A stretch of DNA of 64,000 bases from Shigella phage SHFML-26. A program made the position numbers and the translations under genes. The stretch is from the sequence record KX130862; one strand, written 5' to 3'. Under the pieces are notes generated by a model. The model did not search any database and was not told the DNA's origin. It saw only the letters and a program-made list of their open reading frames with translations. This document shows, in pieces, positions 1-40,242 of the stretch; within the stretch, counting starts at the first letter, position 1, and each line of letters begins with the position of its first letter.

Positions 1-71
1 CCAACTACTACCGCTGAAACCTGTGCAACCCACCACGCACAAGCAATAAGTACAGAATTCAAAATTTTCAT
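1..71 (-). CDS. partial CDS, N-terminal 23 codons only (gene continues past window start); hydrophobic N-terminus
   Basis: ATG at 69-71 (minus) preceded by GAGGT; ORF open to window edge. Confidence 0.3.
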   Translation of the reverse strand, partial: MKILNSVLIACAWWVAQVSAVVV

Positions 72-150
72 AATAACCTCATCACAAAAGTAAATGTTAA
101 ACAAATTAATGGAATACTAATTAACCAAACAAAACACCACCATAATGAAC

Positions 151-414
151 TCATAGTTCAATCTCAGCGATTTTCATTTCATTATTGTTAATAGCATTTT
201 TAAGACTATCCGAAAGAATTACATTCCAGTGGTCATTCATATGACCATTAACTAAGCGTGTAATTTCTTCGGGAGTTGAAAAATAAGGCGTATCAGACTC
301 CCAATGCGATAATCCTAAGCGAGTATAAATCATGCCTTCATCATCGCTAGAATATTCAACTGACACAAACTCATCAGTTATTTTATGTTTAGCGTAATAA
401 AATTTAAATTTCAT
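151..414 (-). CDS. hypothetical small protein (87 aa)
   Basis: ORF track 151..513; start moved to ATG at 412-414 (MKFKFYY) behind GGAG SD and early promoter. Confidence 0.45.
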   Translation of the reverse strand: MKFKFYYAKHKITDEFVSVEYSSDDEGMIYTRLGLSHWESDTPYFSTPEEITRLVNGHMNDHWNVILSDSLKNAINNNEMKIAEIEL

Positions 415-420
415 TTTACT

Positions 421-457
421 CTCCAAATCCGTATCAGTTGATAGTTGTATAGTACCA
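421..457 (-). repeat. conserved promoter-leader cassette CTCCAAATCCGTATCAGTTGATAGTTGTATAGTACCA (copy 1)
   Basis: Near-identical copies at 27018-27054 and 54181-54217; partial copies at 52752-52777, 57783-57803, 8420-8441. Confidence 0.6.
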
Positions 458-494
458 CGGTCCTTGTGGTATGTAAACCATTTTGTGAAATTTT

Positions 495-1052
495 TTAAAT
501 GGAAAGATACCATCCGCTGTAGTTGCTTTTTCTTACAACCTTACGAAGGTCTTCTCTATCACCGATGAACTTCGGAGTGTATTGGATGACACCTGGATGA
601 ATTTCTTTAGTGTTGAATATAATTATACAGTCAGCGACTTGATGATTTAGAATGGGCCCTAGATTTATTCCAGAACCATATGGATACTCTCCGCTGCATC
701 CTGTTGTCACCGAAATCCAACGTGAGTCAGTTTGATGTGTCTTAACTTCTACACGAAGCCCGCAGTATCTTGGATGCGCCAATACATCCCATGCATATGT
801 GTACGGATCATCGACATCTTCTTGACCTTTGTTAACATACCCGCTCATCCAATCTGCTACAAAAAACTCTGCGTACACAGCGATACGGCATCTTTCGATA
901 ACTTCTGCCTTATCCTGATTTGGGTTTTGTTTTAAAGAGTATCTTGCAGTATCAACAATTTTGACCTTCATTTCACTAGTCAAGTCACTGTTCGATAGGG
1001 TAAATGTCGGAATCTGAAATAGTCTCTGTAACCCCGGATTCGTTTTCTGCAT
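495..1052 (-). CDS. denB: putative endonuclease IV (DenB-like), 185 aa
   Basis: 185-aa ORF downstream of rIIB; assignment by size and position only. Confidence 0.4.
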   Translation of the reverse strand: MQKTNPGLQRLFQIPTFTLSNSDLTSEMKVKIVDTARYSLKQNPNQDKAEVIERCRIAVYAEFFVADWMSGYVNKGQEDVDDPYTYAWDVLAHPRYCGLRVEVKTHQTDSRWISVTTGCSGEYPYGSGINLGPILNHQVADCIIIFNTKEIHPGVIQYTPKFIGDREDLRKVVRKSNYSGWYLSI

Positions 1053-1314
1053 TTAAACTTTCCTTTTTACCACTAAGATAAGCGTTATACACTTTAAGAG
1101 TACCATAGTAAATTCGATCATTTTCATCTAAAGAATTACGATCAAGTTCATCGAGATTCTTTTTGTCCATGACTATAACATCATTGCAGTAAAGAACTCC
1201 AAGTTTTTCATGCCCAAACTCGAATTTATTGCAGTACACAATATTAACGTAATGATTACCATGTAGAGAAATTTCTTTTATGTCGGTGTCACCGATATTC
1301 ATACAATAAATCAT
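985..1314 (-). CDS. hypothetical protein
   Basis: ORF track; overlaps start of 495..1052 ORF. Confidence 0.35.
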   Translation of the reverse strand: MIYCMNIGDTDIKEISLHGNHYVNIVYCNKFEFGHEKLGVLYCNDVIVMDKKNLDELDRNSLDENDRIYYGTLKVYNAYLSGKKESLNAENESGVTETISDSDIYPIEQ

Positions 1315-1321
1315 AATTTAC

Positions 1322-1345
1322 CTTAAAACAAAAGGGCCGAAGCCC
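1322..1345 (-). terminator. intrinsic terminator (GGGCUUCGGCCC hairpin + U-run)
   Basis: GC stem with UUCG tetraloop followed by TTTTGTTTT on minus strand. Confidence 0.55.
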
Positions 1346-1540
1346 TTATTTGAATTGTTCAATTCTTTTCTCTAAACAGTCAGCATAAGATTTCATTGAG
1401 ATAAACTGCGAAAGTAACAGTTCTTGCTCAACTGCACTAACTGTTAGAAACTTTGCGCTTTCTAAAAATTTGCTCAGTGCATTAATTTTGAGCATTAATT
1501 GATCGTATTCTTCTTTTACTCGTGCTTGATAACCTAACAT
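1346..1540 (-). CDS. hypothetical protein (64 aa), ends EQFK like rIIB
   Basis: ORF track; flanked by GGGCCGAAGCCC hairpins. Confidence 0.4.
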   Translation of the reverse strand: MLGYQARVKEEYDQLMLKINALSKFLESAKFLTVSAVEQELLLSQFISMKSYADCLEKRIEQFK

Positions 1541-1568
1541 AATTTTCCTTAGTTAAGGGCCGAAGCCC

Positions 1569-2507
1569 TTATTTAAATTGTTCAGTAACGTCTTCAACTA
1601 CTTCGTATTGGCAGGTACGCATTTTAGCATCGTTGTAATCAATCGGAATTGATACTACATCGCGAGGATGAACTTTAACTTTTACAACTCGGCTGGTTGA
1701 ACTACCAAAGTGACGAATATAAGATTTAGAACACACATGCAGACCGCGAGAACAAGTCTGTGTATCATCGTCATTCACACGAGTACGTGGCATTTTAACT
1801 ACTTTACCCGGACTGTTATCAAAGGTGTTTGAGTGACAGTCAAAGTAATTGCTGCGAACTACTTTCCAAGCATAGAAGTAGCCATCTTCTGTAATTTCAA
1901 TATCGTTTGCTACCAAGAAATCAAAGAGTCGAGATACCGCTTTTTGGCTTGGGTTTTCCAACAGATTTTCCAAGAACGGAAAATAAAATTCAAAGTTTTC
2001 GCCTTTTTCCATCGAGTCAAGAATACGATCAACCAAACCAGACCGCAATTCAATATTTTGATAGAACAAGCTTCCACCTTCAATTCGAACATCGCCGGAA
2101 ATATATTTTTCAACAGCGCGACGAACATTAATTTTTTGTGCAGCTTCTTCCAGCTTATCTGCTACAAGCAGATTAAGAATTTCCTGGAAGTTTGAATGAG
2201 TATTAGGAGTTGCGTTATAAGTTACACCGTCAACAGTAATTGAAATGAATTTTTTAGATGCATTCCAAATAATGTCAGATTTAGCAACTGGAGCAATAAC
2301 TGCATCGCTATTAACTTTAACTGTAATATCACCGCTAATAGTAACTTTAGGGCGTTTAGCTTCTTCAGCATTTTTCAAAACACGACGGATTGTGTCAACC
2401 GATACATCCTTCCAATAAGCCAATTCCTGTTGGGTGTAATTACCACTTGAATACAGTTTAACAATTTCAGCTTGTTCGTTTTTGGTCAGGCATTTAATAT
2501 TGTACAT
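1569..2507 (-). CDS. rIIB: rIIB protein (312 aa)
   Basis: 312-aa ORF directly downstream of rIIA; sequence recognised as T-even rIIB. Confidence 0.9.
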   Translation of the reverse strand: MYNIKCLTKNEQAEIVKLYSSGNYTQQELAYWKDVSVDTIRRVLKNAEEAKRPKVTISGDITVKVNSDAVIAPVAKSDIIWNASKKFISITVDGVTYNATPNTHSNFQEILNLLVADKLEEAAQKINVRRAVEKYISGDVRIEGGSLFYQNIELRSGLVDRILDSMEKGENFEFYFPFLENLLENPSQKAVSRLFDFLVANDIEITEDGYFYAWKVVRSNYFDCHSNTFDNSPGKVVKMPRTRVNDDDTQTCSRGLHVCSKSYIRHFGSSTSRVVKVKVHPRDVVSIPIDYNDAKMRTCQYEVVEDVTEQFK

Positions 2508-2518
2508 AATTTTCCTTA

Positions 2519-4696
2519 TTAGGCCGCAAGGGCCTTCATAGTTTTAGCGATTTGAGAAACTTCATCATCACTTAAAGAGTTGCGATAACCGATGAAGTCG
2601 GAAACAATACGGAATTTCTTGGTAAACTCAGCAACCATTTTATCGCTGTTTTTTGAAGCATTATTTGATAATACATCAAAAAGATTAGTTACTGTCCAGA
2701 TGTCATGACCGATGGTATCTTTTCCACCATTAAAATATACGCCCCGTAATGAACTAACCATATTAGCGAGTCGTGTATATTCTTCAGAAACTTCATCTAT
2801 ACTGAAGTACTTCATCATAAAATCTAACTCAGGATACTTGATAATTTTATCAATATATCGTTTAGCTGAACTTGAATAACCTACATACTTATCATAATCT
2901 ACATCATCAAAAGCATCTACATATAAATCACGCAAAGCTTCAAAAATACATTGGCACTGACCGAGTTCTTTTACCTTTTTCTGCAAAAGCGGACGAATAA
3001 CATAAAATTCATTAATGCCAATAAGATTAGCCATACGAATCAAAATATTCATAGATGGATGACAAAGAGATGTAGTACCATCCATAGAGAAAATATCAGA
3101 ACGATGCATATACGCTACATACCCAGTAATTTCATCTGCTTCTGATGTGAGCGTAAATAATTCCTCTTTTTCCCAGCGCCCGTCTTTAATTTCAAACTTA
3201 AATGCTGTAGCAGCTTTAGGACGAGGAGCTTTACTTTTAACTACCTTTGGAATATAACTTTTTACTAAAGCTTCAATTTCTGACAAATAATGAATGTTAA
3301 CTTCATCACTTTCAAACATCGCCATAATATCAGGGAGTAAATCAATCTGCGATTCTACTTCTGGATTAATAAACAGAAGACGTTCGTTATGATGAATATT
3401 CAAAGTGTTATTAAATTCACTATCATCTAACGCTCGTGCTAATCCACGAACAATATTAACACGATTTTTAATATTATCAATAACGATATTAATTTTTGTT
3501 GTATTAATACCAAACAGACGATAACTTGATGCAACGGCTGAAGTTTCATGACTTTGCTTAATGCGCTTCAGTCGAGGGTCAAGATTTACTTCATACACAA
3601 CTCCTGCATTGCATAACTTACTATCAGGTTCAAACATGCTTTGCATCTTCTTATATGACAGATTTTTAGTCGTAAATTTGACTGAATTACTAATCATATA
3701 ATCTCGAGCAGAATACCCCATCTTCATCAATTCACGATATGTGTGACGAGGAGATGTAGATTCTTTAAATCGTTTTACATCTTCATTAAATGCTTTCTCA
3801 CTGAGTTCTTTAACTCGTTCAATAATATTTTTACGAGTGCGATCATCCAGTGAAAGAGCCTCGCGAGATGGAGCAATATCAAGTGAACCCATTGGAAACT
3901 TAATGTAATTCACTTCATTGCGAATGCTTAGCCAGTTACGGTCTCTAATAACACCATCAATAGGATAAACAATACCGCCATAGATAGCATATAATCCACC
4001 ACGATCAGGCCAGTATCTTTCTGGATTTACACCATAATAATCATCAAAATCAGGAAAATAATCAATTTCGCGGTCAAGACCATTAATGATAGCCAAATCT
4101 TTGAACGGTCGCATGATATAAGAAACTTCATAAGCAAAGTTTCTAAAATCTTTTTCTTCAACTGGAACTACGATTTCAATACCAGTTTTATCATCTGGAC
4201 CCATTTCTTTTACGAATGTAGGTTTAATCTGTGGGCCATCACCATCCATGTAAGCTACATAACCACGAATTTCACCTTTATGATACGAAGTAATACTAAA
4301 CGTATCAGTATAACTAAACGGAGATTTAGAACCTAAACCAAATCCGCCAATAAAGTCATTAGATTCAGCTTTAGATGAACTGAAGTATGAATTATACAAC
4401 CCAGGAGAATTATCATCACCTTGAATATCAAAATCACTCATACCCGGACCAAAATCTCGACAAACAAATCGCGGATCTAAACGTCCAGGAACTTGTATAA
4501 TAAATTTTTCAGGATTTCCATTAAGTGCATGAGCATCAATCATGTTAGTAATCAATTCACGGACTACTGCGCGAATCTTGTTTGTATACAAATCAGATGA
4601 CAGAATTTTAAATACTTTAGGAGATGCTGTGATGCTAAATGCTTTTGATTTAGAACCATTACCAAGAATTGTTTCTTTTTCAGTAGTGATAATCAT
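2519..4696 (-). CDS. rIIA: rIIA protein (725 aa)
   Basis: 725-aa ORF, recognised rIIA sequence and length. Confidence 0.9.
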
Positions 4697-4706
4697 AATT
4701 TCCTCA

Positions 4707-4910
4707 TTAATTCATATTACGCTTAATAACTTCGGCAACTTCTAGTAGTTCATCTTTAGTTGCGGTGTCGGATTGAATTTTATCTCTAATATCCTTAAAG
4801 CGGTTTTTAAATTCTTCGGCTTCTCCCATATCGAAAAAGCGTTGAATGATTCTATATTCTCGATGAACTGCTTTATCAAAAAGTTCTAAATTTACTTTAT
4901 ATGATTTCAT
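4707..4910 (-). CDS. rIIA.1-like small protein
   Basis: 67-aa ORF between topoisomerase gene and rIIA, behind an early promoter. Confidence 0.55.
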
Positions 4911-4935
4911 TTCAATATCCTCATTTGCCCAATTA

Positions 4936-4965
4936 ATTATACCACATCCTTGTGGTAAAGTAAAC
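4936..4965 (-). promoter_or_regulatory. T4-type early promoter (GTTTAC -35, 18-nt spacer, TATAAT -10) for rIIA.1-rIIA-rIIB
   Basis: Minus strand reads GTTTACTTTACCACAAGGATGTGGTATAAT. Confidence 0.6.
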
Positions 4966-6782
4966 TACTGACTCATCCATTCTTTACGAAGGTCAGCATT
5001 ATCTCCCATGAGCATTTCAAAAAGCTCTTTCCAGTTCTCAGGAAGTTTAACAACATCATATACTGGGTTTTGAATCATCTCACGATATTCAGATTTTTCC
5101 AAAGAGCCAAGTCCCTTAATATAACGGATGCTATGTTTAGGTAGAGCATCTTTGGCACTCTCATATTCAGCGACTGTATAAAACCATTCTTGTTTTTTAC
5201 CGACCTGAGCGATGATTACAGGAGTTTTGACAAAACGAATTCGTCCTTGCTCAAACAATTCTGGCCAATTACTAAAAAATCCGAGCAGAGAAGGATAAAT
5301 GCTTCCTAGACCATCATGGTCAGCATCAGTCATAATAGCAATATTATGATAATTCAAGTTTTCAGCTTTTTCACCGAGAACTAATCCAGTGATTGCGCAA
5401 ATATCAAACAGTTCTTTGTTTTTAAGCATATCTGCATAAGACATACCCCAACTGTTGAGAACTTTACCGCGCAATGGATAACCACCGTGAAGTTCTTTAT
5501 CACGAACATCAATAAGATATCCGATAGCAGAATCACCCTCAGTCAAGAAAAGAGTAGTATCAGCATCTTTACCGCAAAGATTCGCTTTGATATGTTTATG
5601 AACCTTAGCTTTAGAAGCCTTTTTAGCTGCTTTAGTTTCTGCTGCTTTTTCTGCCGCCAATTTACGAGCCAAAGCAGCTTCAATAATCGGCATTAGAATT
5701 GCTTCATTATTTAGAATAGCACGTGAAATCTTTTTAGCATCAAGCTGAATATGACTACGGATTTCACCAAATGGAGAAGTCAAACGCTCTTTAGTTTGAG
5801 AATCAAATCGCATGTTTTTCATATCACGGACAAACATAACGATAGTCAAACATTCTTTAACGCGTGCTTTAGTCACATCAATTTTGAACTTACGTTTGAT
5901 TTGTGGAATAAGGTCTTCACAAATATCATCCATAACACAGTCAATGTGATGGCCACCATTCTTAGTGTGGATGTTATTCACATAAGTTAATTGACGAAAT
6001 CCATCCGGTGAACGACCAACTGCAATAGAACAATTTTCTTGTTCTTGAACAATAGCATGCTCATCATATTGGCGTGCATATTTCTTAAAATTGCCCTGAA
6101 CCTTTTTACCATTAAAGGTAAATTGAATATCAGGATAAACTACTGCAAGTGTCTGGAGACGATCTAATGTAATGTCAAGATAAACTTGGGACAGCTCATT
6201 AGTTTCAAATGACATAAAATCAGGAATGAAAGTAACACGAGTTCCTTTCCATTTTCCAGGAATATCTTCCCATGATTTATTTTCCATGCCATTTGAACAA
6301 CGAACTACAATATTATTTTGACCATCACCAGTTTCACCGACAAACATCACAGAAAAAATGTTAGTTAAACTAGAACCAACACCGTTCATACCACCGGTGA
6401 CACGTTCTTTATCATCACCGAAGTTACCACCTGCTTTTGGAATAGTCCATGCAGCAACAGGACCAGGAATTTCTTCACCGGTAGGTGTTTTAACCATCGC
6501 TTGTGGAATACCACGACCGTTATCTTCAACTGTTACTTGATTGTTTTTAATAGTAACATTAATTTTATTTGCGAATTTAAACTTAGTACGAATACCTTCA
6601 TCTACTGAGTTATCGATAATTTCATCAATAAGCTTAACAAGACCAGGTACATACTGAACACTTTCCCATTTACCAAACAGAAAGCGCTCATGCATTTCAT
6701 TAGCTGAAGAGCCAATGTACATGCCGCTACGCTTTTTGATATGTTCAATATCACTCAGAATTTTAATTTCATTCTTAATCAT
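4965..6782 (-). CDS. 39: DNA topoisomerase II large subunit (gene 39), single unsplit ORF of 605 aa
   Basis: GHKL ATPase and Toprim-like motifs (DNGRGIP, TEGDSA); ATG at 6780-6782 behind GAGGA; no gene-60 split or bypass gap. Confidence 0.9.
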   Translation of the reverse strand: MIKNEIKILSDIEHIKKRSGMYIGSSANEMHERFLFGKWESVQYVPGLVKLIDEIIDNSVDEGIRTKFKFANKINVTIKNNQVTVEDNGRGIPQAMVKTPTGEEIPGPVAAWTIPKAGGNFGDDKERVTGGMNGVGSSLTNIFSVMFVGETGDGQNNIVVRCSNGMENKSWEDIPGKWKGTRVTFIPDFMSFETNELSQVYLDITLDRLQTLAVVYPDIQFTFNGKKVQGNFKKYARQYDEHAIVQEQENCSIAVGRSPDGFRQLTYVNNIHTKNGGHHIDCVMDDICEDLIPQIKRKFKIDVTKARVKECLTIVMFVRDMKNMRFDSQTKERLTSPFGEIRSHIQLDAKKISRAILNNEAILMPIIEAALARKLAAEKAAETKAAKKASKAKVHKHIKANLCGKDADTTLFLTEGDSAIGYLIDVRDKELHGGYPLRGKVLNSWGMSYADMLKNKELFDICAITGLVLGEKAENLNYHNIAIMTDADHDGLGSIYPSLLGFFSNWPELFEQGRIRFVKTPVIIAQVGKKQEWFYTVAEYESAKDALPKHSIRYIKGLGSLEKSEYREMIQNPVYDVVKLPENWKELFEMLMGDNADLRKEWMSQ

Positions 6783-29947: not shown

Positions 29948-29969
29948 CCAAATAAGGGGCCGAAGCCCC
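29948..29969 (-). terminator. stem-loop/terminator upstream of gene 43 leader
   Basis: GGGGCUUCGGCCCC then UUAUUUGG. Confidence 0.5.
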
Positions 29970-31002: not shown

Positions 31003-31026
31003 AATTATAAAGGGCCGAAGCCCTTT
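31003..31026 (-). terminator. intrinsic terminator after gene 45
   Basis: AAAGGGCUUCGGCCCUUU then UAUAAUUU. Confidence 0.55.
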
Positions 31027-36579: not shown

Positions 36580-36606
36580 TATAAAGCTAAAGGGCCGAAG
36601 CCCTTT
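36580..36606 (-). terminator. stem-loop/terminator after a-gt
   Basis: AAAGGGCUUCGGCCCUUU overlapping a-gt stop. Confidence 0.45.
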
Positions 36607-40221: not shown

Positions 40222-40242
40222 ATCCAAAAAGGGCCGAAGCCC
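40222..40242 (-). terminator. intrinsic terminator
   Basis: GGGCUUCGGCCC then UUUUUGG. Confidence 0.55.

Follow-up and report, generated by a model that had tools for sequence, protein, structure and literature searches.

The direct repeat beside rIIB in Shigella phage SHFML-26 is a routine gene-end signal of T-even phages, of a kind that is largely known and already annotated. Quite probably, it represents two copies of the ordinary T4-type UUCG gene-end RNA hairpin, one behind rIIB and one behind denB.1, and this view includes local copying or gene conversion as the origin of the second copy. The copying history is the sole mildly new point. Beyond a tidy annotation, the repeat is of little significance, as the 30 nt next to rIIB are an ordinary T4 UUCG hairpin used twice. 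Terminator features are confined to the second hairpin, and the rIIB-denB interval contains two old genes, denB.1 and the DUF7418 open reading frame (ORF) behind it, each dispensable on its own.

The repeat covers the ends of rIIB and denB.1

We analyzed a window of 64,000 nucleotides from this phage (accession KX130862), in whose first 5 kb every gene lies on the minus strand (Table 1). A repeat search identified two segments of 30 nt that are 223 nt apart and 97% identical (29/30), the longest direct repeat within the first 4 kb of the window. The minus-strand sequence of either copy is GAACAATT(C/T)AAA TAA GGGCTTCGGCCC TT, which corresponds to E-Q-F-K and a stop codon, followed by the hairpin. 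This bears out the preliminary description, which had claimed a direct repeat of about 30 bp and had noted that rIIB and the adjacent 64-aa ORF both end in EQFK-stop and then in the same hairpin. The 18-mer that it quoted is also present, at 1334-1351 and 1557-1574, the earlier end positions having been one base too long.

The similarity of the two copies is beyond chance. The 12-mer core of the hairpin occurs six times in the window, with 0.01 occurrences expected, and the 15 nt upstream of the hairpin are identical at 14 positions in the rIIB/denB.1 pair, compared to 4 to 10 of 15 in all other pairs of the six copies. The empirical probability that two 12-mers in front of a TAA match at 11 or more positions was about 1.5e-5. 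When an indel of 3 nt is allowed, the similarity runs on into the next ribosome-binding site, where TAAGGAAAATTATGT behind the first copy corresponds to TAAGGTAAATTATGA behind the second.

As AAAAUUAUGU, the published RegA repressor site of rIIB (PMC3014915), is contained in the 15-nt initiation region TAAGGAAAATTATGT that is common to rIIB and denB.1, denB.1 may be under RegA control as well. The last rIIA codons contain another, different hairpin (GGCCC-UUG-CGGCC or similar; 2521-2535, minus strand), just before the ribosome-binding site of rIIB. At the other end of the interval, the DUF7418 ORF and the 185-aa denB frame overlap by 68 nt (985-1052, minus strand). Several GenBank records with an intact DUF7418 place the denB start at a later ATG (158 aa), so that denB may begin there in phages whose DUF7418 is intact.

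Table 1. Positions of genes, repeat copies, hairpins and initiation regions in the window.
Feature	Position	Strand	Description or basis
rIIA	2519-4696	-	identity from annotations of related records
rIIB	1569-2507	-	312 aa, ends VTEQFK; ORF list and annotations of related records
Repeat copy B	1555-1584	-	last four rIIB codons (EQFK), TAA stop, hairpin 1
Hairpin 1	1554-1571	-	UAAGGGC-UUCG-GCCCUUA, 7 bp, -10.9 kcal/mol; stop codon within the stem
denB.1 translation-initiation region	1537-1551	-	TAAGGAAAATTATGT; identical to the rIIB region 2504-2518
denB.1	1346-1540	-	64 aa, ends RIEQFK; T4 annotation; Pfam PF21825 (crAss001_48-related), E 3.9e-19
Repeat copy A	1332-1361	-	last four denB.1 codons (EQFK), TAA stop, hairpin 2
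Hairpin 2	1332-1347	-	AAGGGC-UUCG-GCCCUU, 6 bp; folding and terminator-pattern scan
U-rich tail of hairpin 2	1325-1331	-	full tract UUUUGUUUU from 1333 to 1325
DUF7418 ORF translation-initiation region	1311-1325	-	TAAGGTAAATTATGA; 13/15 match to the rIIB and denB.1 versions
DUF7418 ORF	985-1314	-	109 aa, full-length DUF7418 (PF24193), downstream of hairpin 2; ORF list, Pfam
denB	495-1052	-	185-aa frame; annotations of related records
Further exact GGGCTTCGGCCC copy	29957-29968	-	0-5 nt after a stop
Further exact GGGCTTCGGCCC copy	31012-31023	-	0-5 nt after a stop
Further exact GGGCTTCGGCCC copy	36592-36603	-	0-5 nt after a stop
Further exact GGGCTTCGGCCC copy	40231-40242	-	0-5 nt after a stop

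Only the second hairpin resembles a terminator

The predicted minimum-free-energy or centroid structures were the two hairpins (-9.3 to -10.9 kcal/mol), with modest folding z-scores of the 56-nt contexts (-1.1 to -1.45). Each stem-loop is G+C-rich, with four G-C pairs and two to three A-U pairs, the UUCG loop is closed by a C-G pair in both copies (GGGC-UUCG-GCCC on the coding strand), and each hairpin directly precedes a Shine-Dalgarno sequence and an ATG. Rfam gave no match in the whole window at the gathering score, nor in the segment 1200-1700 at E values up to 1.

Hairpin 1 is followed by ACUAAGG (UUAACUAAGG), has no U-tract and is not terminator-like on the minus strand. Hairpin 2 was the sole terminator-like minus-strand site that a pattern scan found within 1-5200. 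Its UUUUGUUUU tract overlaps the last two stem bases and is continued by AAGG, with which the DUF7418 ORF has its Shine-Dalgarno sequence. GenBank records of DalCa, G8 and fPS-65 carry terminator annotations of these hairpins, and in DalCa and fPS-65 the element so annotated is hairpin 2.

Intrinsic terminators and 3' hairpins are well known in general, and the following functional readings build on that knowledge. Both hairpins would act in the mRNA, each adjoining the ochre stop codon with which an early gene of the minus strand ends. As it lacks a U-tract, hairpin 1 is probably a stabilizer rather than an efficient terminator, and most likely it is a 3' stabilizer and insulator of the rIIB cistron, i.e., a putative stable 3' structure that would close this cistron, block 3'-to-5' exonucleases and insulate the cistron. 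Hairpin 2 is most likely a rho-independent terminator or attenuator of rIIA-rIIB-denB.1 transcripts. The stems of 4-6 bp are short for a terminator, which speaks against such a role, and a scan of the minus strand from 1792 to 835 found no sigma-70-type promoter-like site. With no such promoter between hairpin 2 and the DUF7418 and denB genes, these genes would have to be reached by read-through, and hairpin 2 could therefore be at most an attenuator. In the literature, we found nothing specific on denB.1 or rIIB terminators.

The hairpin sequence recurs at gene ends on one strand only

T4 mRNA is where the UUCG tetraloop, a loop of exceptional stability, was discovered (PMC4371310). In the window, all six copies of the GGGC-UUCG-GCCC 12-mer are on the minus strand, 0 to 5 nt after the stops of minus-strand ORFs. 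The genes that end at the four further copies include a gp45-like gene (228 aa) and an alpha-glucosyltransferase-like gene (400 aa), and the genome holds multiple copies of GGGCUUCGGCCC. The hexamer CTTCGG is about three-fold enriched (33 observed, 12 expected), and 15 of 17 CTTCGG stem-loops are carried by the transcribed strand. The stem of the repeat hairpin is used by 6 of the approximately 13 UUCG hairpins of the window that have at least six stem pairs, and UUCG-loop hairpins with other stems were found at further gene ends. The strict strand bias of the copies thus points to a role in RNA and not in DNA.

A hairpin after rIIB is conserved among T4-like phages

A strong hairpin was found no further than 60 nt behind the rIIB stop in 53 of 67 distinct T4-like loci, compared to 9 of 268 control windows inside rIIB, and the loop is UUCG in 33 of these 53. 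Alignment of 20 distinct hairpins gave 95% paired cells, a value that is partly due to construction, as the best hairpin was picked for each locus; six of the seven pairs had changed on both sides, and the closing C-G pair was invariant. Stems vary by genus (GGGC, GGGGC, GGAGGC, GGGGAC, GGAGAC, GGAGCC, GCCCTC and others) and yet stay paired. The position downstream of rIIB is hence conserved together with compensatory changes, with the best hairpin taken from each locus. In T6 (L021) and L036, the loop of the rIIB hairpin is UCCG, and in G8-like phages (L023/L027) it is UUUG, with the loop of hairpin 2 remaining UUCG.

The post-rIIB hairpin is an old conserved structure, which is present also where there is no second copy. 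Dhakavirus, Kanagawavirus and Marfavirus have a hairpin before denB.1 only; the loci L054-56, where rIIB and denB.1 overlap as TAATG, have one after denB.1 only; and Tequatrovirus, Winklervirus and L043 have hairpins on both sides of denB.1. As the placement varies and the two hairpins are identical in sequence only in Tequatrovirus, the conserved item is a hairpin and not a direct repeat. What is maintained is a hairpin between rIIB and the DUF7418/denB genes.

denB.1 is an old gene that is missing in some genera

The 64-aa ORF that the preliminary description had placed next to rIIB is denB.1, whose match to PF21825 spans residues 4-61 and which gave tblastn matches in 651 phage records. The order rIIB, denB.1, an ORF of about 100 aa and denB recurs in Dhakavirus (JS98, Bp7), Kanagawavirus (PEi20, Kosakonia 305), Marfavirus (VAC36) and Winklervirus (X20). 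This order was also seen in IMG/VR loci, and rIIB-denB.1-DUF7418-denB is kept in at least six genera.

Within Tequatrovirus, denB.1 DNA was present in 495 records, compared to 496 with a match of at least 90% identity to the rIIB 3' end. Going by these matches, all but at most one or two of the approximately 496 Tequatrovirus records appear to retain denB.1. Matches to the rIIB 3' end without matches to denB.1 DNA were obtained for two records, one labelled "Salmonella" and one "Tequatrovirus", which may be partial records or true losses. A synthetic junction query for a precise denB.1 deletion returned two-piece matches that still contained denB.1 in all of its best 30 hits.

Among genera, denB.1 and DUF7418 are each variably present. 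Lineages without denB.1 include the sister genus Mosigvirus (161 records) and the L044-L050 groups, among others. In a single-gene neighbor-joining tree of rIIB, groups without denB.1 adjoin sisters that have it, which implies at least three losses. In the lineages without denB.1, one hairpin, a U-tract, a Shine-Dalgarno sequence and DUF7418 come after rIIB, and the 3' flank of this hairpin resembles that of the Tequatrovirus hairpin 2. In Mosigvirus, the rIIB stop is followed by one UUCG hairpin and then by UUUUUCUUUAGGGGUAAUUAUGAUU, which continues into DUF7418. This arrangement would be compatible with the product of a hairpin-to-hairpin deletion, and a hairpin-bounded loss of denB.1 over evolutionary time is plausible. 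The comparison of Marfavirus with L044 shows that a locus with a single hairpin can lose denB.1 as well.

The shared coding ends most likely result from local copying

Outside Tequatrovirus, denB.1 ends in RI-x-x-F-stop, mostly abutting the next ATG without a hairpin. In Tequatrovirus, it ends in RI(A/E)QFK-TAA-hairpin, and the ending QFK-TAA-hairpin is unique to this genus. The rIIB end carries the ancestral motif TE-x-F(K). The identity of the coding ends, which reaches 15 nt beyond the hairpin into both genes, is peculiar to Tequatrovirus. Most likely, local copying or gene conversion of the rIIB stop-hairpin module gave rise to it: the CAATTY-AAA-TAA-hairpin module of rIIB would have been copied onto the denB.1 end in the Tequatrovirus ancestor, so that denB.1 would have gained its final Lys codon, its stop and its hairpin, and thereafter both copies would have drifted and been partly re-homogenized.

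The denB.1 end is polymorphic among the 16 Tequatrovirus genomes that we compared (the window and 15 others). Codon 61 encodes Ala (GCA) or Glu (GAA), Phe is encoded by TTC or TTT, and hairpin 2 follows the denB.1 stop after an (A)ATAA microsatellite-like spacer of 0, 4, 5, 6 or 12 nt (loci L001-L022). In REP2, this spacer consists of three ATAA units. The window has Glu and no spacer (stop/hairpin boundary at 1345/1346), which results in the 29/30 match. Sf23 equals rIIB at all three variable sites and reaches 30/30, so that the exact repeat is 30 nt long in Sf23, compared to 19 nt in T4. About 40 of the 243 records that matched a 61-nt query were at least 95% identical to the window-type end. 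This allele pattern suggests occasional re-homogenization by gene conversion, the alternative being independent mutation. Two points stand against the copying. The Q-F of denB.1 is possibly ancestral (RI-x-x-F), in which case an explanation would be needed for no more than the Lys codon, the stop and the hairpin, and a single conversion tract from the phage's own rIIB should have changed TTC to TTT, a change that is absent in the window.

A wider generalization would be that T-even gene-end hairpins spread and stay alike by short-patch ectopic gene conversion and later provide the homology for precise losses of small genes. The rIIB stop-hairpin module would then have been copied onto denB.1, rewriting its last codons, and a loss as in Mosigvirus could follow; such a process would be a promoter-less analogue of PeSL-mediated (promoter-early stem-loop) shuffling in the rII-denB interval. 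We regard this generalization as tentative and rather doubtful.

Pure convergence would mean that both gene ends independently took up the preferred hairpin sequence at a TAA and that the EQFK match is a coincidence, helped by ancestral residues. The occurrence of six identical 12-mers at unrelated gene ends fits this explanation, as do the ancestral F of denB.1 and TE-x-F(K) ending of rIIB and the A/U-rich flanks that are expected around terminators. It is nevertheless unlikely, as the upstream match of the rIIB/denB.1 pair is far above that of the other copy pairs and has the low empirical probability given above, even the T4 allele matches at 10 of 12 positions (counted by eye), and Sf23 agrees with rIIB at every polymorphic site.

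The repeat is not an insertion scar, and no deletion found in Tequatrovirus maps to it

The preliminary description had also suggested that the repeat could be a recombination scar or a deletion endpoint, which a comparison of the rIIB-denB interval across T-even genomes should reveal. In Tequatrovirus, this comparison revealed no pair of empty and filled sites with endpoints in the repeat, and the indels of the interval are in DUF7418; only the between-genus comparison with Mosigvirus is compatible with such an event. Of the two suggestions, the scar holds insofar as the identity of the coding ends is best explained by ectopic copying or gene conversion; an insertion scar is contradicted by the synteny in at least six genera and by PF21825. 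The deletion endpoint holds insofar as the one-hairpin locus of Mosigvirus is what a deletion would be expected to leave; within Tequatrovirus, with 495 compared to 496 records, no deletion maps here.

The length difference between T4 and the window in the rIIB-denB interval is due to an internal deletion of the DUF7418 ORF in T4 and is not located at the hairpins. We therefore rejected it as a hairpin-mediated deletion. By our reading of the alignment, the T4 deletion looks in-frame, and its junction lies at a short TTTC(C)TTTT microhomology. DUF7418 is intact in the window, and differing internal deletions are present in T4, fPS-65, ESh34 and about half of the Tequatrovirus records. The laboratory deletion NB5060 of T4 GT7 (L103, KJ477686, 4150-4661) was likewise rejected as a hairpin-ended deletion, as its endpoints are in gene 52.1 and inside rIIB: it joins gene 52.1 to a point approximately 396 nt from the start of rIIB, and the two sides of the junction overlap by 11 nt.

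These results bear on the possibility that direct repeats delimit denB.1 as a cassette, which was either inserted, the hairpin being duplicated in the process, or is poised for excision by recombination between the hairpins. The direct repeats flank exactly one small ORF, this ORF is absent from the groups named above, with their resembling 3' flank, and the rIIB tree implies repeated losses. There is also a precedent in the PeSL-mediated excision and the mini-circles of RB49/phi1 (PMC2839356), and Mosig (1998), as cited there, is given as the source for GGGC/GCCC motifs at T4 deletion endpoints. Even so, we consider a cassette improbable. denB.1 as an insert was rejected because of its synteny in JS98, Bp7, PEi20, Kosakonia 305, VAC36 and X20 and its membership in a Pfam family. 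Moreover, hairpin 1 exists in genera without hairpin 2, nearly every record with the rIIB end has denB.1, none of the best 30 junction hits was in a single piece, a loss was possible with one hairpin in the Marfavirus/L044 comparison, and the real indels of the interval are in DUF7418, with NB5060 ending elsewhere. Finally, the hairpins have no promoter on the minus strand between 1792 and 835 and therefore were rejected as PeSLs.

That the palindrome is instead a DNA-level signal, at which a protein binds or a cruciform forms in the course of recombination, replication or packaging, is highly improbable: Mosig (1998), in the form in which PMC2839356 cites that work, suggested a sequence-specific protein at GGGC/GCCC motifs, but a cruciform would be indifferent to orientation, whereas the transcribed strand carries the six copies and nearly all CTTCGG stem-loops, it is UUCG and not its complement that is conserved in the loop, and the stem varies freely between genera, with compensation. 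The preferred reading, two ordinary gene-end hairpins related by copying, would, if gene conversion is true, provide a small example of how a regulatory hairpin propagates in T-even genomes and thereby gives homology for gene loss.

Comparison with known systems

Tuerk et al. (1988) reportedly described C(UUCG)G tetraloop hairpins in T4 mRNA. The hairpins analyzed here have the same loop, the same C-G closing pair and a short G+C-rich stem, and they are likewise intercistronic in early mRNAs. There is no substantive difference, except that the preceding four codons are common to the two copies here.

Rho-independent terminators are found at conserved positions in T4-like genomes (Nolan et al., 2006; PMC1524935). 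Hairpin 2 resembles these in its G+C stem and U-tract, and the position after rIIB is conserved across genera. Unlike such terminators, hairpin 1 of Tequatrovirus has no U-tract, and hairpin 2, in view of the presumed read-through, could not be more than an attenuator.

PeSL cassettes (Arbiol et al., 2010, PMC2839356; Comeau et al., 2014, PMC4122927) are similar in that repeated intergenic stem-loops flank a small non-essential ORF of variable presence, which recombination could excise. As to the differential presence of an ORF between related phages, which is characteristic of PeSLs, denB.1 is missing in Mosigvirus and other groups and present in essentially all Tequatrovirus records. In contrast to PeSL cassettes, there is no sigma-70 promoter, the repeat comprises 30-50 nt where PeSLs have about 100 bp, the UUCG loop sits on a GGGC/GCCC stem, denB.1 is not an ORFan but widely conserved, and no excision product was seen in approximately 495 genomes.
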